Below, piece by piece: positions 1 to 38,607 of a stretch of 64,000 nt of DNA. A program made the position numbers and the translations under genes. Source of the DNA: Patescibacteria group bacterium (GTDB taxonomy: Bacteria; Patescibacteriota; Minisyncoccia; RBG-13-40-8-A); the NCBI GenBank assembly GCA_043807255.1, contig JAZDGD010000001.1, forward strand, positions 8,464 to 72,463. The letters run 5' to 3'. Under the pieces are notes generated by a model. The model worked only from the letters and a program-made list of their open reading frames with translations, did not search any database and was not told the origin of the DNA. Every line of letters begins with the position of its first letter. Within the stretch, counting starts at the first letter, position 1.

Positions 1-14
1 AATCAAAGAATAAT

Positions 15-734
15 ATGGAAGTTATAAATATCGACATTATTAACAATTCGGTTTTGAAACTTTTGTACGAACATCGTTATATTTTCGCTTTTTTGGGAGC
101 ATTGTTTGAGGGAACGTTTATCATGATTTTAAGCGGGGTTTTATTAAGGTTTGGTTACTTTAATTTTTTTGATTTAATCGTGGTATTAATTGTTGGTTAT
201 TTTTTGAATGGTTTACTTTGGTTTGTGCTTGGGAGAATTGCCGGGCATACAATTGTTGATAAGTGGATAAAACATTTTAAAACAGGGAAGAGGTTTGCAG
301 ACAAGATAGAAGGATATTTTAAGGAGCACAGTTATAGGACAATTTTCTTAACCAGAATTACTTATGGGATTAGTATGTTTAGTTTTATGATTGCTGGGAG
401 TTTAAAAATGAATTGGAAAAAATTTATAACCATAAGTTTATTGGCAACGGTTGGTTGGGTGTTGTTGGTGGGTGGCATTGGTTATGGTTTTGGTGCAAGC
501 ATACAATCATTGAGTAGCGTGACCAAGGGCGTAACAATTGGCATTTCTTTAACCATAATAGCGGTTATGATTTTATTTGCCCTATCAATTGTTTATTGGT
601 TAAGATATTTTGCGCGAACGAAGTTTGTGCAAGAATTAGAAAATCATGATTCAATAATTTTAAGTAAAATTGGTGAAACAATTAGAAAATCGTTTCATCA
701 CAAAAAAAATGATAAAGAAACTTTCGATAAATAA
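15..734 (+). CDS. DedA/SNARE-associated (TVP38) family membrane protein
   Basis: Multi-TM protein matching the conserved DedA core (FLGALFEGTFIMILSG...GYFLNG...RFGY). Confidence 0.55.
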   Translation: MEVINIDIINNSVLKLLYEHRYIFAFLGALFEGTFIMILSGVLLRFGYFNFFDLIVVLIVGYFLNGLLWFVLGRIAGHTIVDKWIKHFKTGKRFADKIEGYFKEHSYRTIFLTRITYGISMFSFMIAGSLKMNWKKFITISLLATVGWVLLVGGIGYGFGASIQSLSSVTKGVTIGISLTIIAVMILFALSIVYWLRYFARTKFVQELENHDSIILSKIGETIRKSFHHKKNDKETFDK

Positions 735-1329
735 AATAGTTTTCTTTTTAATTAAAGCAGATTTTTTCTTTTTTTCAGCATTGGGTTTGGTCGCACCAAT
801 TTTTGCGGTCTTTTTAACGGAAAAATTAAAAGATGGAAGCATTGAAGTTGCTGGTTTTGCAGTGGCAATTTATTGGATTACAAAGTCAATTTTTGAAATT
901 CCTATAGCAAAATTTTTAGACAAGAGAAGGGGAGAGAAAGATGATTTATTGTTTTTGGTCGCAGGGTATTTTGTGGTGGGATTGATTCATTTTGGATATA
1001 CTCAAGCAACTTTGTCTTGGCATATTTATATATTGGAGGCATTATATGGTATTGCTATGGCGATTGCTATGCCTGGTTGGTCGGCAATGTTTACCAGGCA
1101 CATTGACAAGGGCAAGGAGGGCTTTGAGTGGAGCATAGAACATGTTGCTTATAGTATCGGAGTGGGAATTGCGGGTGCATTAAGCGGAATTTTGGTTGCA
1201 AGATATGGATTTAATGTTGTGTTTATAATTGCCGGAGTCGTAGCAATTATTGGTTCACTAATTCCATTATTTGTTTACAAAGACGTTAATATTGGCGGAG
1301 ATAATAAAATAAGATTTTTAAAACCATGA
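670..1329 (+). CDS. 6-TM MFS-like half-transporter membrane protein
   Basis: Hydrophobic helices with an MFS-like pattern; the six-frame ORF overlaps the upstream gene, so the real start is probably near 706. Confidence 0.35.
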   Translation: MVKQLENRFITKKMIKKLSINKIVFFLIKADFFFFSALGLVAPIFAVFLTEKLKDGSIEVAGFAVAIYWITKSIFEIPIAKFLDKRRGEKDDLLFLVAGYFVVGLIHFGYTQATLSWHIYILEALYGIAMAIAMPGWSAMFTRHIDKGKEGFEWSIEHVAYSIGVGIAGALSGILVARYGFNVVFIIAGVVAIIGSLIPLFVYKDVNIGGDNKIRFLKP

Positions 1330-1523
1330 TTACAAAAGAAATGAAAATAGAGGAGGTATTACAAAAATATCCAGAAACAATGGAAATTTTTATGAAATAC
1401 GGATTTCATTGTTTGGGTTGTGCGTCAGCAAGTTTTGAAAACGTTGAAGATGGTGCGACCGTTCATGGAATTGATATTGATAAATTTATTGAGGAATTAA
1501 ACGCAACAATAGAAAAGAAATAA
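1326..1523 (+). CDS. DUF1858 redox-disulfide small protein (hybrid-cluster-associated type)
   Basis: 65 aa with a CLGC motif and the typical DUF1858 layout (ETMEIFMKYGFHCLGC...TVHGID). Confidence 0.5.
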   Translation: MITKEMKIEEVLQKYPETMEIFMKYGFHCLGCASASFENVEDGATVHGIDIDKFIEELNATIEKK

Positions 1524-1529
1524 AATAAA

Positions 1530-2111
1530 TTGTATAAATTGTATTTTTTGTCAGATATGGTATCATATAATTATATGAATATATCAATACCAAAATTAAA
1601 AGCAATTCTATTATATTTTAGTAATTTTACTGAAAGAAAATTTTTAGGAAAAGTGAAGTTAATGAAATTATTTTACTTCTTGGACTTTATGCACGTAAAA
1701 AAATATGGATCACCAGTTACATATGATAATTATGTGAACCTAGAGCACGGTCCAATACCCTCTTCTATTAAAAATTTAGTAGATACCGCAGATGATGATA
1801 TTGATAATTCTATTTTGGCTGATACAATATCGTTCGAAAAGATGGATGGCGAGGGAATTCATAGAATTATTCCGAAGAGAAAATTTACAGAACAGGACAA
1901 AGAATATTTTTCTACAACAGAATTTGATATTTTAACGGAGGTCTGTAAAAAATTCGGGGATAAAAATACCAAATATATAGAAGAAGCTTCTCATAATGAA
2001 TCTCCGTGGAAAGAAACTAAATTTCTAGGGCTGATCCCGTACGCATTAGCTGCCAATGATCCAGATTGCATAGCAAGAAAAGAGGAGATAGAAATGATAG
2101 TAAATCTATAA
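1530..2111 (+). CDS. Panacea (DUF4065) domain protein, SocA/PanA antitoxin-like
   Basis: Panacea core motif KLMKLFYFLDF...YGSPVTYDNYVNLEHGPIPS. Confidence 0.6.
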   Translation: MYKLYFLSDMVSYNYMNISIPKLKAILLYFSNFTERKFLGKVKLMKLFYFLDFMHVKKYGSPVTYDNYVNLEHGPIPSSIKNLVDTADDDIDNSILADTISFEKMDGEGIHRIIPKRKFTEQDKEYFSTTEFDILTEVCKKFGDKNTKYIEEASHNESPWKETKFLGLIPYALAANDPDCIARKEEIEMIVNL

Positions 2112-2114
2112 ATT

Positions 2115-2507
2115 ATGAAGTCGTCAGAATTTGGAGATATTTTTGAATACGAACAAAGAGACTGGATTTTCCTTGCAAAAATTGGAGACATTATGAGTGC
2201 GTGTCGAATATTGGACACAGAGGAAACAAGGAAAATTAATAGTCTCTATGAGTATCGGAGCAAAAGGAACGAAAATTGTATAAACCAAAGTATTTTTTGT
2301 TTTGTGGTATTACAAACAGAAGGGTTTAAAGGTAGAATGGCCCATTTTGCAAAATCTGAATTGGGCGACGTAAAATCTATTTTGTACAAAACAGAAGTGA
2401 AGTTGGATAAAGAGGATTTAATAAAAATTAAAAAAGAAATAGAGAATTTAAATAGTTCTGTGTCTGGCGGGTTGAGAAAAATTATAAAGAATATAGAGAT
2501 AAAATAA
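2115..2507 (+). CDS. Hypothetical 130-aa protein; candidate toxin partner of the upstream Panacea gene
   Basis: Starts 4 nt after the Panacea ORF on the same strand; I recognise no domain. Confidence 0.3.
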   Translation: MKSSEFGDIFEYEQRDWIFLAKIGDIMSACRILDTEETRKINSLYEYRSKRNENCINQSIFCFVVLQTEGFKGRMAHFAKSELGDVKSILYKTEVKLDKEDLIKIKKEIENLNSSVSGGLRKIIKNIEIK

Positions 2508-2565
2508 AATCATTATTTATTATTAAAATCGCCAAATAGGCGGTTTTTTGATATAATAAATCTGT

Positions 2566-4311
2566 ATGACCAATCAGGAGATTTCGCATATTTTAAATAA
2601 TATCGCCGAATATTTAGCGATGGATGATGTCCCATTTAAGCCGCGTGCTTACGAAAAAGCAGCAGTTAGTATTGAAGCACTCGACGAGAGTGTTTTTGAC
2701 ATTTATAAAACTGGCGGGATAAAAGCATTAGAAAATATATCATCTATTGGCAAAGGAATTGCCTTCAAGATTGAAGAATATATTAAAACAGGGAAAATAA
2801 AAGAATATGAACAATTAAAAAAGAAGGTGCCAGTTGATTTAGAAGCATTAACGGCAATTGAGGGGATTGGACCAAAAAGTATTTTAAAATTATATAAAGA
2901 ATTGGGGGTTAAAAATGTTAAAGACCTAGAAATGGCTGCTAAAAATAAAAAAATTAGAAATATTGAAGGATTCGGGCAAAAAACCGAAGACAATATTTTA
3001 ATGTCGATTCAATTTTTGAAAAATTCTGATGGCAGATTTCCTCTGGGATATGTTTTGAATGATTTAAGAAACATTGAGCAAAAAATTAAAAGAATAAAGG
3101 GAGTTAAAAAAACATTATTAAGCGGGTCTGTGCGTAGAATGAAAGAAGATATTGGTGATGCCGATATTCTAGTAGCAGTTGATAACAAAGAAGACACAAA
3201 AGACATTGTAAGCTATTTTATTAATATGCCGGAAGTAGCGCATATTTTTAGCCACGGAGACACCAAGTCATCCGTAAAATTAAAAAATCACATTAATTTT
3301 GATATGCGAGTTGTTGAGGAAAAGAGTTTCGGCGCTGCTTCGCAGTATTTTACGGGAAGCAAGGATCATAATATTGCACTAAGGAAAATTGCGATTAAAA
3401 AAGGATTAAAATTGAATGAATACGGGATTTTTCGAATTAAAAGTCAAAAGTCAAAAATTAAAAGTTTGGCGGAAACAGAAGAAGGGGTTTATAAAAAATT
3501 AGGACTACAATGGATTCCGCCAGAGATGAGAGAAAATAAAGGCGAGATCGAACTTGCTCAGAAGAATAAACTTCCCAATTTAATAAAATACAACGACCTT
3601 AAAGGCGATTTGCAGATGCATTCAACCTGGTCAGATGGATTAAATACAATTGAAGAGATGGCAAATAAAGCAATGGATATGGGATTAGAATATATTGCAA
3701 TTACTGACCATGTTCGGGGCATGTTTGGCAATAAATTAAACGAAAAAGGATTAAGTAAGCAATGGGAAGAAATAGATGAGATAAATCAAAAATTAAAAGT
3801 CAAAAATCAAAAATTCAAAATACTGAAGGGGTGTGAGGTTGATATAATGAATGATGGGAGTTTGTATATGAAAGATGAAATTTTAGAGAAATTTGATATT
3901 GTTGGCGCAGCAATTCATTCTAATTTTAAAATGTCTAAAGAAAAAATGACCGAAAGAATTGTTCGGGCGATGAGAAATCCTAATGTTGATATAATTTTTC
4001 ATCCCACTGGTCGGCTTATTGGTGCGAGAGCTCCGTTTGAAGTTGACATTGAAAAAATTATTCAAGTCGCCAAGGAGACAAATACGATTCTGGAAATCAA
4101 TTCTTATTTTAATCGTTTAGATTTAAAAGACGAATATGTGCGTATGGCAAAAAACGCAGGAGTAAAAATTTCCATTGATTCTGATGCACACAGTATTTCG
4201 CATTTTCAATATTTAGAATTAGGCATCGCCCAAGCCCGCAGGGGGTGGTTAGAAAGAAAAGACGTCATCAACGTTTGGCCACTAGATAAAATGTTAAAAA
4301 TGCTAAAATGA
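2566..4311 (+). CDS. polX: DNA polymerase X family protein with a C-terminal PHP phosphoesterase domain
   Basis: N-terminal HhH/Pol-beta-like region, nucleotidyltransferase motif (GSVRRMKEDIGDADIL) and a PHP histidine motif (MHSTWSDG...ITDH). It carries two in-frame copies of the 30-nt heptamer repeat. Confidence 0.8.
   Translation: MTNQEISHILNNIAEYLAMDDVPFKPRAYEKAAVSIEALDESVFDIYKTGGIKALENISSIGKGIAFKIEEYIKTGKIKEYEQLKKKVPVDLEALTAIEGIGPKSILKLYKELGVKNVKDLEMAAKNKKIRNIEGFGQKTEDNILMSIQFLKNSDGRFPLGYVLNDLRNIEQKIKRIKGVKKTLLSGSVRRMKEDIGDADILVAVDNKEDTKDIVSYFINMPEVAHIFSHGDTKSSVKLKNHINFDMRVVEEKSFGAASQYFTGSKDHNIALRKIAIKKGLKLNEYGIFRIKSQKSKIKSLAETEEGVYKKLGLQWIPPEMRENKGEIELAQKNKLPNLIKYNDLKGDLQMHSTWSDGLNTIEEMANKAMDMGLEYIAITDHVRGMFGNKLNEKGLSKQWEEIDEINQKLKVKNQKFKILKGCEVDIMNDGSLYMKDEILEKFDIVGAAIHSNFKMSKEKMTERIVRAMRNPNVDIIFHPTGRLIGARAPFEVDIEKIIQVAKETNTILEINSYFNRLDLKDEYVRMAKNAGVKISIDSDAHSISHFQYLELGIAQARRGWLERKDVINVWPLDKMLKMLK
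3436..3465 (+). repeat. 30-nt AAAAGTC heptamer mini-repeat (attaaaagtcaaaagtcaaaaattaaaagt), in frame in polX
   Basis: Identical 30-mer at 30385-30414 (leuS). Variants at 3792-3821 (polX), about 14945-14974 (ileS) and 35959-35990 (pth, minus strand); degenerate relatives at 10361-10380 (argS) and 48742-48760 (nrdG). Confidence 0.8.
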
Positions 4312-4730
4312 ATAAATTTTTGAAATTTTGGTTGCCAGTTGTGGTTTGGGCGGGGTTGATATTTGTTTTATCCTCAATCCCAAGTCTAAAAACAAATCTG
4401 GAACAAGATTTTTTGTTAAGAAAGATTGCACATATTGTTGAATTCGGCATTTTAACCTTCTTATTATATAGGGCTATATCCGCCCAGGGCCTGCCTGCCG
4501 GCAAGGCAGGCGGATCGCCCTGCAGGGCAATCATCTATTCTTTTATTTTTGCATTATTTTACGCCTTTTCCGACGAACTACATCAATATTATGTTCCGGG
4601 TAGGCATTGTAGCTTAAAAGATGTTGGAATTGATAGTGTCGGTATTCTTATTTTTTCATTGGCGTGTTATTATAAAAATAGAAAGGCGCCGTTCCCCGTA
4701 GGGAACAGCGCCAGTAGGTCAGGCTATTAG
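4308..4730 (+). CDS. VanZ-like family membrane protein
   Basis: VanZ-like motif SDELHQYYVPGRHCSLKDVGIDSVG. A GC-rich palindromic insert lies in frame at 4489-4511. Confidence 0.5.
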   Translation: MNKFLKFWLPVVVWAGLIFVLSSIPSLKTNLEQDFLLRKIAHIVEFGILTFLLYRAISAQGLPAGKAGGSPCRAIIYSFIFALFYAFSDELHQYYVPGRHCSLKDVGIDSVGILIFSLACYYKNRKAPFPVGNSASRSGY

Positions 4731-4737
4731 TTCAAGC

Positions 4738-5727
4738 TTAGAACAGCTTGAAATTCAGACCGGCCGAAATGCCGGGGGCAAACCCGACTTGGCCCTGAAT
4801 GAACAATTCGGCGAAGTTCATCTCAACGCCGACACGGAAGATATTAACGAACCCGAAACTCGTCGCGCGAATCTCGAATTCGTTCTTGTCGTAGAACGAA
4901 TCGTACGAGCCGTAATAGGAATCGTGGAACCAGTTTTCCTGGTATCCCACGCCGGAATAGGTGGTACCCAAGAACAAGGCCCTGATTCCGGCGGACGCAT
5001 GTAAGATCGCGTTGCCGACGTTGGTCTTGTACGACATGTCGAACCCGGCAGAGAATTCGGAGTGAGACATCTTACGGATATTGGCCTGTTCGGCGTAATA
5101 TCCGTAAGACATCCACCCGAATCCCTCGGTACGGTAGTTGTGGATATTGGAATCCACGGACGACTCGTCCTGCCAGAGATATCTGGCGGTCAGGTTAGTG
5201 AAGAAATGTTCATTGTTGAACGGAATTGTCCATTCAATCTCTCCACCGAAGATCAGCCCGAGTTCGGACTTGTTCTTGAACGGCGTGAAATCGTGTTGCC
5301 GTTCGAACTGTCCGTCCCAACCGTCGTATTTCTCGACGGTCTCGATGGTGCCCCGATAGTAGTCGTAGGCGAGGTTGCCCGTGCCCACGATGCCGGAGAT
5401 CCGGAAGTTCTTGGAGACGAACGAGACTTCGCAGTAGATCCGCGAAACCTGTTCTTCTCCGTCGAGTTCCGAAAGCTTGGTAACCGTGTGCCGGTCATAG
5501 CGTCGGACATCAACTATTTTGGTGTCGTCTCCGAATCCTTTGTACGAGAGATCCTCTCGCACGATGCTGATCTGGAATCCCTTGACCCAGCTGGCCTTCT
5601 CTTCGAACGACATCGCCGAGGCCGAGGAGAGGAGCAATACCACCATCGCCAACAAGACATAAAACTTTTTCACTAGAACCTCCTTAAAAGATTGTGGACT
5701 AAGTCCAGTATATACATTATAGCACAT
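4738..5727 (-). CDS. Secreted beta-rich protein ending in Phe (outer-membrane beta-barrel-like), in a GC-rich island
   Basis: Signal peptide, G/Y/F/W-rich alternating pattern and a terminal ...NFKLF. Local GC is much higher than the flanks. Confidence 0.45.
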   Translation of the reverse strand: MCYNVYTGLSPQSFKEVLVKKFYVLLAMVVLLLSSASAMSFEEKASWVKGFQISIVREDLSYKGFGDDTKIVDVRRYDRHTVTKLSELDGEEQVSRIYCEVSFVSKNFRISGIVGTGNLAYDYYRGTIETVEKYDGWDGQFERQHDFTPFKNKSELGLIFGGEIEWTIPFNNEHFFTNLTARYLWQDESSVDSNIHNYRTEGFGWMSYGYYAEQANIRKMSHSEFSAGFDMSYKTNVGNAILHASAGIRALFLGTTYSGVGYQENWFHDSYYGSYDSFYDKNEFEIRATSFGFVNIFRVGVEMNFAELFIQGQVGFAPGISAGLNFKLF

Positions 5728-5796
5728 ACAAAGAATTTGTCAACTAAAAAAGTCGAGATTTGGATTAATTGGAATAATTAAAATAATTAGAAATTT

Positions 5797-7233
5797 ATGA
5801 ATAATGATTTAATTAATTACATAAAACAATGTCGCGAACAAAAGATTTCTGATGGGCAAATCAGAACCGCTCTTTTAGGTGCGGGGTGGAAGGTAGAAGA
5901 TATAAATGAAGGATTTAATTCATTTAATGGCATAAACGTCCCTGCGCCGAGTGCTTCCAATAGTGTTGGCGGCAAATTGGCATCAGCGCCACAAATTTTA
6001 AAAGAGGCGTGGGGAATTTATAAAAAAAGATTTTTGGTTTTTGTCCTTTTAACAATAATCCCGCTGATTTTAACCACCATATTGATTGCCGTGGTTGGTG
6101 GTGTGGGCTTGTTGGGATTGGCTCTTATTTTTACTGGTCTTGCTGTTTGGAAAATTATATCATTTGCTTTAATAGCAATTTTGTTGTTCTTTTTGTTTAC
6201 AGCTACTCACGTATGGGGACAGGCATCATTAATTTATGCGATTAATGAAAATGAGTCTGGGTTAAAATTTATAGAAGCAATTAAAAAGGGTTGGCATAAA
6301 ATATTCCCTTATTGGATAGTTTCGGCATTGATTGGTGTTATTGTTATGTGTGGGTCGATGCTTTTTCTTGTTCCGGGAATTCTTTTTATGGTTTGGTTTT
6401 CTCTCGCCTTTTTTGTTTTGACAGTTGAAGACACGAAGGGCATGAGCGCTCTTTATAAGAGCAGGGAATATGTTCGAAACCATTGGTGGGCGGTACTGTG
6501 GAGGTTGATTTTTATGTGTCTAATTTCTGTGGTTATTTCTCAAATTTTTAGTTGGATATTTAAATTGATAAATGTCGGCTGGATAGAAATGATCGGTACT
6601 TTATTGGTTTCGTGCGTTCTGCTTCCGCTAATGTTGGTTTATAATTTCTTAACTTATAAAAAATTAAAAGAGTTGAAAGGAGATTTTGTTTTTGTCCCAG
6701 ACAAAAGTACTAGGACTGGCGTAAGAATCGTGGTGATTATAGTGATCACGCTCTTAGTCCTTGGTATTGTCGCAAACTTTCTTTTGGCCGGATTTTTGAT
6801 AAAACGGAATTCTTCAAATAATAACTTACAAAATCCTCAATCTAATGATCCACGAAGAAATCAATCGGTTAGTTACGAAATTGGATCAAGAGACGCCAGA
6901 AGAAGAAGTGATATTATTCTAACGGTTTTCGCGCTTCAAATGTATTACGACGATAATGGTAGTTATCCGAAAACTAACGGATGTAATGTTGATAGCTGGA
7001 GTTTAATGATGAGCACATTGCAAGATAAGAAGATTCTGTCGAATGTTCCGACCGATCCATTAAATTCTGGAGATTACACGTATAAATATAGTAGTGACGG
7101 CAAAGACTATATTTTAAGCGCCTATTTTGAGGATTCTACTAATCATTATTTAGGTACGGACGTTGATGGTGTTATTATGGGTTGTGATTGTGGTGATTCA
7201 CATTATTGTCTTGATTCAGATACTCGTTATTAA
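5797..7233 (+). CDS. Membrane protein with a conserved cytoplasmic N-domain, a multi-TM core and a C-terminal type-II-secretion pseudopilin (GspG)-like domain
   Basis: The C-terminal RRRSDIILTVFALQMYYDDNGSYP resembles the GspG globular domain. The N-terminal about 40 aa are paralogous to the protein at 41523. Confidence 0.45.
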   Translation: MNNDLINYIKQCREQKISDGQIRTALLGAGWKVEDINEGFNSFNGINVPAPSASNSVGGKLASAPQILKEAWGIYKKRFLVFVLLTIIPLILTTILIAVVGGVGLLGLALIFTGLAVWKIISFALIAILLFFLFTATHVWGQASLIYAINENESGLKFIEAIKKGWHKIFPYWIVSALIGVIVMCGSMLFLVPGILFMVWFSLAFFVLTVEDTKGMSALYKSREYVRNHWWAVLWRLIFMCLISVVISQIFSWIFKLINVGWIEMIGTLLVSCVLLPLMLVYNFLTYKKLKELKGDFVFVPDKSTRTGVRIVVIIVITLLVLGIVANFLLAGFLIKRNSSNNNLQNPQSNDPRRNQSVSYEIGSRDARRRSDIILTVFALQMYYDDNGSYPKTNGCNVDSWSLMMSTLQDKKILSNVPTDPLNSGDYTYKYSSDGKDYILSAYFEDSTNHYLGTDVDGVIMGCDCGDSHYCLDSDTRY

Positions 7234-7264
7234 TCAATAAAAAGGTCGGTAATTATAAAATAGA

Positions 7265-7342
7265 AGCAGATAATCGCAGATTAAGACGCAGATAAACGCA
7301 GATCAGCGTAAATCGGCGCTTAGATCCGCGTAGATCTGCATA
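7265..7342 (+). repeat. Intergenic mini-array of degenerate CGCAGAT(A)A(A) decamers
   Basis: agcagataatcgcagattaagacgcagataaacgcagatcagcgtaaatcggcgcttagatccgcgtagatctgc. Related tandem units occur in frame in tatD (26225-26275) and leuS (29299-29338). Confidence 0.7.
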
Positions 7343-7349
7343 TAATTGT

Positions 7350-7721
7350 ATGTTTTATTCATTTTTTGGTTTAGGATTTGTGGCGGGATTTTTGATTATC
7401 GTAGGCATTCTTTTTCTACTAGTGAATTTGGGAATAATCAGTGCTGCGGTTTGGGCGTGGTGGCCAATACTGTTGATTGTTATTGGAATTTATATTTTAA
7501 CTTTAAAAAAGAGAAGAAAGAAAATTGCTGTGCACAATATTTTCTCAAAACTTGCTTCTAACGATAAAATTCAATCGAAACTTAATAAAATTATTGAAAC
7601 CGTTGATCAGGTGGTTGAGAAAAAAATAGATGAATGGCACGACGAAGCAATGAGCGAAAAGGGGGAAGAGGAAATAAGAACAAATGAAACCCATCACACA
7701 AAATCGAAGGTCCAGTTATGA
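7350..7721 (+). CDS. Small 2-TM membrane protein with a charged C-terminus
   Basis: ORF with two hydrophobic helices followed by KKRRKK. Confidence 0.3.
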   Translation: MFYSFFGLGFVAGFLIIVGILFLLVNLGIISAAVWAWWPILLIVIGIYILTLKKRRKKIAVHNIFSKLASNDKIQSKLNKIIETVDQVVEKKIDEWHDEAMSEKGEEEIRTNETHHTKSKVQL

Positions 7722-8133
7722 TTATGAAATATTAGAAACCTACGAGGCTGGTTTAGTGCTTTTTGGTTTTGAGGTGAAAGCAATAAAAACCGGCCATGTT
7801 AGTTTAACTGGCTCATTTGTTACAACCAAAGGCGGAGAGCTTTTTTTGACCAACGCCCTGGTCCCGCCCTATCAACCCAAAAACACTCCCATTGACTACG
7901 ACCAATCACGGCCAAGAAAGCTTCTATTAAATAGGTCCGAAATTAGTTCGTTGATTGGTAAATTAAAAGCCAAAGGGTTGACATTGGTACCAATTCGGTT
8001 ATATACTAAGAAGAACAGAATAAAGCTTGAATTCGGCATAGCCAAAGGAAGAAAGAAGGCCGACAAGCGAGAAGTAATAAAGAAGAGAGAATTTGGCAGA
8101 GAAAAAGAAAGAATTATTAAGGGGGGAATCTAA
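7684..8133 (+). CDS. smpB: SsrA-binding protein SmpB
   Basis: Conserved SmpB motifs (DYEILETYEAGLVL, RPRKLLLNRSEI, TLVPIRLY, KGRKKADKRE). Confidence 0.85.
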   Translation: MKPITQNRRSSYDYEILETYEAGLVLFGFEVKAIKTGHVSLTGSFVTTKGGELFLTNALVPPYQPKNTPIDYDQSRPRKLLLNRSEISSLIGKLKAKGLTLVPIRLYTKKNRIKLEFGIAKGRKKADKREVIKKREFGREKERIIKGGI

Positions 8134-37505: not shown

Positions 37506-38282
37506 ATGCTTTCAAAATTTATTCAACAATTACGTCAGAAAAATAATTTAACCCAAGAATATTTGGCGTCTAAGTTAAACATGTCTCGTCCCACATACGC
37601 CCAAATAGAACAAGGAGAGAGAGAGTTAAATATTTCAGAAGCAAACAAATTGTCTGAAGTTTTTAATGTTTCACGGGAGAATTTATTAAATGAAATAGAT
37701 TCTAGTATTATGATAGATGTTCAAAATGATAAGGCCTTAAGCACAAAAGAGAAGATGGGGATTAGAATCAATGTTCCTCAAAAAAATATTAAGAAGTTTA
37801 AAGAAATATTCTTGTACGTTTTGTCGAAGATTGGTAGCAAGCTTAATGTCGGCGAAAGTGTTTTAAACAAACTTTTTTACTTTATCGATTTTGATTATTA
37901 TGAAAAATATGAGGAACAAATAATCGGGGCCACTTATATAAAAAATCATTATGGGCCAACTCCGTGCGAATTCAAAAAAATCATAGAAGAAATGAAGAAA
38001 AGTAATGAAATCGAAGAGGTAAAAAGTAAATATTTTCAATTTGATCAGAAGAAGTTTTTACCATTAAGGAAGCCGAACCTTGATATTTTGACCGCCAGAG
38101 AAACGGAGCATATTGATGATGTTTTAAGTCGTCTTTCTGATAAAAGTGCCAATGAAATCAAAGAATATTCACATGGCGATATGCCATTTTTGGTGCATAG
38201 GGACGGAGAAAAAATAAACTACGAAAGCGTTTTTTATCGTGATGAAAAGTATTCGGTAAGAACATATGACGATGAGCTTTGA
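37506..38282 (+). CDS. HTH-XRE + Panacea (DUF4065) domain fusion, antitoxin-like
   Basis: N-terminal XRE HTH (LTQEYLASKLNMSRPTYAQIEQGER) followed by a Panacea core (LNKLFYFIDFDYYEKY...GATYIKNHYGPTP). Confidence 0.65.
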   Translation: MLSKFIQQLRQKNNLTQEYLASKLNMSRPTYAQIEQGERELNISEANKLSEVFNVSRENLLNEIDSSIMIDVQNDKALSTKEKMGIRINVPQKNIKKFKEIFLYVLSKIGSKLNVGESVLNKLFYFIDFDYYEKYEEQIIGATYIKNHYGPTPCEFKKIIEEMKKSNEIEEVKSKYFQFDQKKFLPLRKPNLDILTARETEHIDDVLSRLSDKSANEIKEYSHGDMPFLVHRDGEKINYESVFYRDEKYSVRTYDDEL

Positions 38283-38607
38283 TGAATTACCAGAATTTCT
38301 AAAAGAATTTAAGCATTATATCAAGAAATATAAATCACTGAGTGCCGATTTGTTAGAGTTTCAGAAAATTTTGTTAGTACGACCATTGGGCAACGGAAAA
38401 CATTTTAATGTTATTACAATTTTTGATAACGTAAAAATAGTGAAGGCAAGACTATTTTGTCGTTATTTGAAAGGGGCCTCTAATCTTAGAGTAATTTATG
38501 CTTATTGCGAAGATAGTCAAAAAATAGAATTTATAGAAATTTATTTTAAAGGAGAAAAAGAGAACGAAGACAAAGAAAGAATAAAAAATTATTTAAAAAA
38601 TTTATAA
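38266..38607 (+). CDS. RelE/ParE-superfamily-like toxin candidate
   Basis: 113 aa, overlapping the upstream stop by 17 nt. The C-terminal pattern RVIYAYCEDSQKIEFIEIYFKGEKEN resembles the RelE/ParE beta-strand core. Confidence 0.4.
   Translation: MTMSFDELPEFLKEFKHYIKKYKSLSADLLEFQKILLVRPLGNGKHFNVITIFDNVKIVKARLFCRYLKGASNLRVIYAYCEDSQKIEFIEIYFKGEKENEDKERIKNYLKNL

Follow-up and report, generated by a model that had tools for sequence, protein, structure and literature searches.

A conserved 130-residue protein family encoded directly downstream of a stand-alone Panacea gene in Patescibacteria: a predicted toxin-antitoxin cassette of the PanA-PanT kind

The stretch of DNA analysed here, in the following called the window, comprises 64,000 nucleotides from the genome of an ultra-small Patescibacteria (CPR) group bacterium and carries, close to its beginning, two adjacent genes on the forward strand. 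The first, panA, encodes a stand-alone protein with a Panacea domain, and the second encodes a 130-residue protein of an unclassified family, here named fam130, which is considered as a candidate toxin (PanT). An initial annotation had placed two open reading frames (ORFs) at 1530-2111 and 2115-2507 on the plus strand, and both are present as described. It had also read in the first ORF the core of a Panacea domain lacking a helix-turn-helix (HTH) motif, and this reading was borne out. Specifically, PF13274 (SocA_Panacea) matches the first ORF with an E-value of 4.9e-20 and 73 bits, against a cutoff of 25.7, over residues 44-161 of the 193-residue reading, and no HTH was found in the panA product by the Pfam scan; the other Panacea gene of the window, at 37506-38282, carries both HTH_3 and Panacea domains. 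The gene start at position 1530, where the maximal frame opens with TTG, has to be revised. The conserved start is most likely the ATG at 1575 (MNISIPKLK...), because both the NCBI record P0002, a 178-residue 'Panacea domain-containing protein' on a 79.7-kb contig of a Patescibacteria group bacterium metagenome-assembled genome (MAG), and most of the listed homologues (177-183 residues) begin there; panA would thus span 1575-2111 (+) and encode a protein of 178 amino acids. In total, 649 homologues of PanA were found at E≤1e-3. The best 120 of these are 61-100% identical to the query (61-74% when the self-hit is set aside) with 84-95% query coverage, and most of those listed are 177-183 residues long, with an N-terminus of the form MxI(P/S). 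In a sample of 22 sequences, 50 columns are invariant and spread over the full length of the protein; they also occur in the N-terminal segment and in the C-terminal tail, outside the Pfam domain. On the SocA equivalog model of NCBIfam (NF047745) PanA reaches 15.2 bits, far below the cutoff of 190.

The stop codon of panA (TAA, 2109-2111) and the start codon of the downstream gene (ATG, 2115) are separated by a spacer of 3 nucleotides (2112-2114, plus strand) that holds no Shine-Dalgarno sequence. Over 61 loci, some of them on duplicate contigs, the spacing between the two genes ranges from -17 to +17 nucleotides, with a mode of -4 that corresponds to an ATGA overlap, and translation of the two genes would be coupled. 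Upstream of panA, a putative promoter can be read by eye at 1539-1571 (+), consisting of a -35 element TTGTAT (1539-1544), a 16-nucleotide spacer and an extended -10 element TGgTATCAT (1558-1566), which is overlapped by a perfect TATAAT at 1566-1571. A promoter of this kind would yield a leaderless or near-leaderless panA mRNA. The consensus scan for promoters did not report it, because its -35 element matches at only three of six positions. In many homologous loci, sigma-70-like hexamers resembling TTGACA and TATAAT lie about 10-60 nucleotides 5' of the panA ATG, and only in a few is a recognisable Shine-Dalgarno sequence found before panA. Just 5' of the panA start, a 9-nucleotide direct repeat, ATAAATTGT, occurs in 2.2 copies at 1525-1544 (+; 100% matches and a score of 40 in Tandem Repeats Finder) and overlaps the putative -35 element; it could be an operator, or it could be meaningless. 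At the other end of the pair, a terminator-like hairpin, AAAUCGCC-AAAUA-GGCGGUUU, was obtained by RNA folding at 2525-2549 (+), 18 nucleotides past the fam130 stop, and runs into a U6 tract. Its folding energy is -10.6 kcal/mol (z -2.9 relative to shuffled sequences) and it would mark the end of the two-gene unit; the terminator scan did not list it. The promoter scan reported a site resembling a promoter at 2529-2557, which would serve the PolX gene downstream.

The downstream gene (2115-2507, plus strand) is assigned to its family on the grounds of its conservation, its structural model and its position after panA. The initial annotation had recognised no domain in its product, and indeed no significant match was found in Pfam, NCBIfam, PHROGs or PADLOC. 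Moreover, a profile of the family against the sequences of the PDB gave nothing, the best E-value being 0.59 (mitoribosomal mS26); no Pfam family recurs among 141 members, with no PemK or CcdB match at E≤1, and a word-indexed homology search with the 130-residue protein returned the protein itself only. When 1.84 billion cluster representatives were searched exhaustively with phmmer, 230 fam130 proteins were retrieved at E≤1e-3, 76 of them at E≤1e-10, each representing a cluster at 50% identity. Among the 150 of these 230 that were listed, lengths range from 85 to 147 residues, with most at about 125-135, and large fusions are absent. Since so many representatives were recovered, fam130 can be regarded as a genuine conserved protein family and not as a chance ORF. 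In the alignment of 141 sequences G7 and L66 are invariant, the columns F6, D8, F10, Y17, L20, Y28, A30, I32, L33, V64, T68, R74, A76, L97, D101, I109 and L120 are conserved in at least 80% of members and H77, K106 and E108 in at least 70%. In particular, T68, which closes a hydrophobic strand, occurs in 136 of the 141 members, R74 in 113 and H77 in 100, and the protein of the window has every conserved polar residue (D8, T68, R74, H77, D101, K106 and E108). Searching the window with a hidden Markov model (HMM) of fam130 revealed no second copy.

To examine the linkage of the two genes, one genome was scanned for every GTDB species; this yielded 64 loci, whose six-frame ORFs were searched with HMMs of both families. 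At 57 of these loci PanA is at least 46% identical to the PanA of the window. Of the 57, 47 have fam130 as a full-length ORF that lies on the strand of panA and starts within about 35 nucleotides, five are interrupted by the end of the contig (L012, L021, L032, L052 and L053) and five hold a damaged fam130; in other words, every uncut locus with such a close homologue of PanA has fam130 or its remnant directly downstream. At the seven more distant Panacea genes of the same scan (26-38% identity; Nitrospirota, Desulfobacterales, archaea and others) fam130 is absent. The first three contig look-ups, covering six loci, had shown an unannotated gene of 126-131 codons directly 3' of panA in all cases, and the downstream proteins aligned from them are 34-47% identical to the fam130 of the window. 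In the reverse direction, the linkage rests on three independent look-ups of the most divergent fam130 members (25-29% identity), all three of which directly follow a Panacea gene of 178-190 codons. Recurrence beside Panacea genes in other genomes, proposed as a check on the initial annotation, is thus seen from both sides.

The genes that flank the pair differ from locus to locus and are of an ordinary housekeeping kind, such as ArgRS and MurC, NUDIX and UvrC-like proteins, L11-L1 and TrmB, YchF, or BipA, and in the window DUF1858 and the PolX polymerase. Because these flanks vary, the panA-fam130 pair is best described as an autonomous, patchily distributed two-gene cassette. Where synonymous divergence (dS) is not saturated, the ratio of nonsynonymous to synonymous rates (dN/dS) is 0.03-0.13 for PanA and 0.08-0.40 for fam130, as is expected of functional genes that are both under purifying selection; conservation of the 130-residue protein, which the initial annotation had made a point of its own, is therefore seen both in the size of the family and in its rates. 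The distance matrices of PanA and fam130 correlate (Mantel r 0.59, p 0.001), so that the two proteins appear to be co-inherited without swapping of partners.

Hosts of the cassette are mostly Patescibacteria and belong to many lineages, namely Saccharimonadales, Woese-, Shapiro-, Roizman-, Giovannoni-, Vogel-, Ryan-, Uhr-, Magasanik-, Falkow-, Doudna-, Peri- and Howlettbacteria, and Minisyncoccia. The cassette is also carried by a cultured isolate of Bacteroidota, Parasediminibacterium sp. JCM 36343 (L046:4001-4940), with an intact PanA and a fam130 that has two frameshifts. This copy was probably transferred out of Patescibacteria, and the transfer is read as an old one because the G+C content of the cassette equals that of its flanks. 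One Parcubacteria MAG (JAZDPK01) holds two copies of the cassette on different contigs (L039 and L051), whose PanA proteins are 60% and 53% identical to that of the window. A phage-borne origin of the cassette found no support, since the cassette is essentially absent from the viral contigs of IMG/VR, where the search gave one relative of 33% identity only.

In several respects this arrangement resembles the PanA-PanT systems. A stand-alone Panacea gene lies upstream, the two genes form an operon with overlap or minimal spacing and the antitoxin first, the architecture is kept across many species while the neighbourhood is not, and the partner has no domain known to the databases. Kurata et al. 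(2022; PMC8832971) recognised PanAT pairs by a Panacea gene, a partner within 100 nucleotides, presence in at least two species, absence of a longer operon and a check of reciprocity. On all five points the cassette agrees with their definition: it has PF13274, a distance of 3 nucleotides, 47 species-representative genomes with both genes intact, variable flanks, and reciprocity in three of three look-ups. Specifically, no conserved operon longer than three genes surrounds the pair, as judged by the differing flanks, by the promoter hexamers proper to many loci and by the hairpin described above. A partner without a recognised domain is no exception among such systems, as most of the 88 predicted toxin clusters of that study have no domain match and 938 of 1,268 predicted PanTs are without a match in CDD (PMC8832971). 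The entries of that study consulted here are RefSeq (GCF) assemblies, and its supplement contains no mention of Patescibacteria or Parcubacteria; two entries there are from Saccharibacteria and combine an HTH-PanA with cluster T14 (PMC8832971). Full-text searches of the literature library used here returned no paper linking Panacea or DUF4065 with Patescibacteria. There are also differences from the known systems: fam130 matches none of the libraries searched, and conservation is much higher in PanA than in fam130. Panacea domains are known to exchange their partners, a property termed 'hyperpromiscuity', whereas the PanA clade of the window keeps one partner family in every retrieved locus where PanA is at least 46% identical. 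It may be added that fam130 may be remotely related to one of the 88 published PanT clusters, its newness being defined by the library searches.

The way in which the cassette decays bears on the question of which gene is the toxin. PanA is full length in all five loci with a broken fam130. In L015 an in-frame TAA occupies the position of the conserved F63, L047 has a TAA together with replacement of D8, R74 and H77, L046 has the two frameshifts mentioned above, in L016 residues 14-56 and the C-terminus are missing, and in L033 a remnant of 20 codons abuts a tRNA-Arg gene. Reassignment of the stop codon was rejected as an explanation for L015 and L047, both in-frame stops being TAA. In the L033 locus (859-994), the remnant ends exactly where the tRNA-Arg(TCT) gene of the opposite strand begins, which suggests that the tRNA gene was the site of a deletion or rearrangement. 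Among the loci retrieved, all of them via PanA, none has an intact fam130 beside a broken panA. Such an order of decay is the one expected if fam130 is harmful and PanA alone harmless, that is, if fam130 is the toxin. The reverse polarity, with the Panacea protein as the effector and fam130 as its fast-evolving antitoxin, would suit the lower conservation of fam130, since it is usually the antitoxin that shows less conservation in classic type II systems; it is nevertheless very improbable, given that five loci have lost the function of fam130 with PanA intact, a state that would be deleterious were PanA the toxin. Moreover, an antitoxin function of Panacea proteins has been validated (PMC8832971, PMC10440598), and the order with the antitoxin first was the commoner one in Kurata et al., by 943 to 325 (PMC8832971).

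The fold of fam130 was predicted with AlphaFold2. With the alignment of 141 sequences the model is confident (predicted local distance difference test, pLDDT, 90; predicted template modelling score, pTM, 0.83), and the model from the single sequence reached a pLDDT of 36. It consists of three N-terminal strands, a long helix at residues 35-50, three further strands and two C-terminal helices, and the order of three strands, helix, three strands and C-terminal helix is, by eye, shared with MazF and CcdB. Searched with Foldseek, the model gave no match at E 1e-3. In the PDB only three structures reach a template modelling (TM) score of at least 0.35 when normalised by the query (TMq), all of them weak matches: CptN (4rmo_A), the top neighbour, with TMq 0.40, a target-normalised score (TMt) of 0.35 and E 0.41; MazF-mt1 (6kyt_A), with TMq 0.48, TMt 0.56 and E 2.2; and MazF-mt3 (8zws_C), with TMq 0.43 and TMt 0.52. 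All others are partial, with TMq of at most 0.25. In a library of viral structures the named full-length matches include 'Endoribonuclease' and 'PemK-like protein', with TMq up to 0.49. By eye, fam130 shares with MazF and CcdB an N-terminal GD(V/I)(F/Y) strand, a hydrophobic strand ending in Thr and a C-terminal helix of the pattern L...DL..I...I, likenesses that count as resemblances and not as tests. The catalytic residues of MazF are an Arg in the beta1-beta2 loop and a Thr or Ser at the end of the central strand (R29/T52); a conserved Arg-Pro after beta1 was not seen by eye in fam130, a comparison made without a reliable alignment to MazF.

The more distant Panacea genes offer a further comparison. 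Five of these outgroup PanAs (26-38% identity; L063, L064, L066, L069 and L070) have in the same position a partner of 137-150 residues, which in L066 is cut by the contig end and in the others lies at L063:2034-2453, L064:4604-5017, L069:4534-4986 and L070:4561-4980 (Nitrospirota, Desulfobacterales and others). These partners have no Pfam match; compared with the MazF family by hhalign, the outgroup partner gave a P-value of 0.001 and a probability of 21% over 93 columns that include GD, basic-residue and TTSQ motifs. They probably correspond to the MazF-like PanTs of Kurata et al. that are detected by HHpred only, two of which, from Pseudomonas moraviensis and Bifidobacterium ruminantium (clusters T5/T6), are validated toxins (PMC8832971). 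A scan of metagenome contigs for a deeper profile of the outgroup partner added one locus. A transitive link from fam130 through the outgroup PanTs to MazF was not established, the comparison of fam130 with the outgroup partners giving less than 1%.

Taken together, the pair at 1575-2507 is predicted to form an autonomous cassette of two genes that act as toxin and antitoxin in the PanA-PanT manner, a reading to which we assign a probability of roughly 0.6; fam130 would probably represent a new PanT family with a candidate toxin role within a known type of system. Along these lines, the panA-fam130 unit would be transcribed from a promoter of its own and end at a terminator of its own, with translation of the two genes coupled, and PanA would bind fam130 directly and neutralise it, by analogy with other stand-alone Panacea proteins, which neutralise toxins directly (Ernits et al. 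2023; PMC10440598). Set free, fam130 would act as a growth-inhibiting effector. Its most likely action would be the cleavage of RNA by a very divergent beta-barrel of the MazF/CcdB/ToxN type, with an active site formed by the conserved T68...K72.R74.AH77 hairpin and D8; as a rarer alternative, it may poison a protein target in the manner of CcdB. Toxicity, direct binding, fold class and target are here what we infer for fam130 and PanA. As regards the single parts, a MazF/CcdB/ToxN-like fold falls slightly short of an even chance, and RNase activity is possible and rather doubtful.

Several observations weigh against this reading. The asymmetry of decay is partly built in, the loci having been found through PanA. 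The Foldseek E-values lie between 0.2 and 3 and the TM scores reach at most 0.56. In hhalign comparisons, fam130 scored a probability of 0.6% against a 68-sequence alignment of MazF/EndoA taken from viral contigs, at most 1% against E. coli MazF alone, 0.5% against CcdB, 0.2-0.9% against the MazF-like partners of the outgroup PanAs, and 0.2% (26 sequences) and 0.1% (four PDB sequences) against ToxN/AbiQ. The structural check proposed with the initial annotation has thus given a confident model with weak MazF- and CptN-like neighbours, and profile comparisons that all stay at or below 1%. With the toxins of the MazF/PemK/Kid/CcdB fold, fam130 shares a similar size, the presence of MazF among its only full-length structural neighbours and the MazF-like partners at the outgroup PanAs; it differs from them in lacking a Pfam match to PemK or CcdB across 141 members, in its hhalign probabilities below 1% and borderline TM scores, in the extra long helix at 35-50 and an extra C-terminal helix at 118-125, in being mostly acidic and in showing no Arg-Pro motif by eye. 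The proposal of a 'new toxin domain' may also be overstated from the opposite side, as the full-length neighbours are, weakly, endoribonuclease toxins of the MazF/CptN type. MazF-like partners of Panacea, recognised by HHpred, are already known (PMC8832971). The initial interpretation is thus supported in part, and largely so as far as sequence analysis can go: the polarity, with the downstream gene as the candidate toxin, has gained indirectly from the five loci with broken fam130 and intact PanA, with none reversed; the word 'new' may claim too much, and the fast evolution and acidity of the protein, considered below, are not those of a typical toxin.

A resemblance to type III toxins deserves separate mention. 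The best single neighbour in the PDB is CptN (4rmo_A, E 0.41), a type III toxin, and in fam130 a strand ending in Thr/Ser and followed by basic residues is, by eye, like the catalytic strand of ToxN, which is also where hhalign placed its best local alignment (0.2%). The idea of fam130 as a toxin like ToxN or CptN that an RNA antitoxin keeps in check, PanA being no more than a neighbour, can hardly be credited all the same: upstream of fam130 there is only the panA coding sequence and no tandem repeat array, positions 1-8000 hold no Rfam match, the 0.2% against ToxN/AbiQ is negligible and the linkage to PanA is strict. An RNA antitoxin is effectively refuted, the only repeats being a short one at 1475-1498 and another at 1525-1544, each in about two copies and both 5' of panA. 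Moreover, fam130 is about 40 residues shorter than ToxN, AbiQ and CptN, has a protein antitoxin and no RNA-repeat antitoxin, and shows no profile similarity to them.

Further points come from the rates and the charge of the two proteins. Over 54 unique pairs the mean pairwise identity is 54% for PanA and 29% for fam130, and the identity of PanA exceeds that of fam130 in 99.9% of 1,431 comparisons; nonsynonymous change is about 2-3 times faster in fam130. The candidate antitoxin is in this way much better conserved than the candidate toxin, the reverse of the usual type II pattern. In addition, fam130 is acidic in 45 of 54 loci, with a median isoelectric point (pI) of 5.3, and that of the window has a pI of 7.65; PanA is likewise acidic (median pI 5.4 over the 54 loci). 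Such acidity is unusual for a toxin that binds RNA.

These properties give some room to other explanations. A variant similar to the type VI system SocA-SocB of Caulobacter, in which PanA would be an adaptor or sensor that passes fam130 to a conserved machine (e.g. ClpXP) or answers a conserved trigger, would explain why PanA is strongly constrained, with 50 invariant columns, and its partner drifts (54% versus 29%). SocA works as an adaptor and is itself a Panacea protein (PF13274, SocA_Panacea), a likeness that is drawn from the antitoxin side alone. Moreover, a sensory role for Panacea has been proposed by Ernits et al. (PMC10440598). On the SocA equivalog model, however, PanA scores 15 bits against a cutoff of 190, and we consider a SocAB-like mechanism quite unlikely.

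Somewhat more credit, within what is still an unlikely range, goes to the explanation that the genes form no toxin-antitoxin pair and that fam130, itself non-toxic, serves PanA function as an accessory subunit, a regulator or a cofactor, acting for instance as a sensor module or in place of the missing HTH in autoregulation. Its acidity and its faster evolution relative to PanA would fit such a role, no residue of the family has an established catalytic role, and loss of fam130 with PanA kept would be tolerable too if fam130 were merely dispensable; furthermore, ten predicted NetFlax pairs were without toxicity in E. coli (Ernits et al.; PMC10440598). On the other hand, DNA binding is hardly to be expected of an acidic protein, Foldseek gives no regulator-like fold, and patchy distribution, variable location and a tight two-gene layout are traits of addiction or defence cassettes. 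The conserved polar cluster of T68, R74, H77 and D8, lost in the pseudogene L047, likewise speaks against an accessory protein.

Because PanA is so constrained and fam130 both fast-evolving and acidic, the readings of PanA as an adaptor or sensor and of fam130 as a CcdB-like poison of a protein keep some weight. In their boldest form, which we hold to be improbable without dismissing it, fam130 would be no degenerate MazF but would have a new effector fold or mechanism: the cassette would be an abortive-infection or addiction module specific to Patescibacteria, with PanA as a sensing hub that binds a conserved component of the cell or of a phage, and the acidic fam130 would poison a protein target and not RNA. 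No antitoxin domain illustrates better than Panacea how a single domain can serve dozens of unrelated toxins. If this form were true, the cassette would provide a monogamous counter-example from nature to Panacea 'hyperpromiscuity', and at the same time a native defence system of Patescibacteria. To our knowledge, Patescibacteria carry few known defence systems.

On the preferred reading as a PanA-PanT cassette, the pair adds a sizeable family of at least 230 clusters at 50% identity from many lineages of Patescibacteria, with a partner outside the curated models of four libraries. Few candidate addiction or defence modules have been described from the reduced genomes of Patescibacteria, and the cassette would be one of them. 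A single partner family, a constrained PanA and repeated decay of the partner also make it a useful test case for the role of Panacea as neutraliser, adaptor or sensor.

Other Panacea genes with small partners were seen in the course of this work. The second Panacea gene of the window (37506-38282, HTH_3 and Panacea, 258 residues) is overlapped by 17 nucleotides by an ORF of 113 codons at 38266-38607, whose product matches nothing in Pfam or among the PDB sequences and is not matched by the HMM of fam130; it looks like a second PanA-linked partner without a known domain in the same genome. In archaea, Panacea genes are followed by partners of 114-115 residues at L065:4478-4825 and L068:4477-4821 (an uncultured archaeon and an Aenigmatarchaeota MAG), which have no significant Pfam match and, by eye only, look RelE/ParE-like. 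Homology between the 38266-38607 product and the 115-residue partner of the archaeal PanA of L065 was considered and rejected, BLASTP showing no similarity.

Finally, the window contains at 4600-5800 a GC-rich island of about 52% G+C, against about 30-37% in its surroundings. It coincides with a minus-strand ORF of 329 codons (4738-5727) that has no Pfam match, and could be foreign DNA or an assembly chimera.

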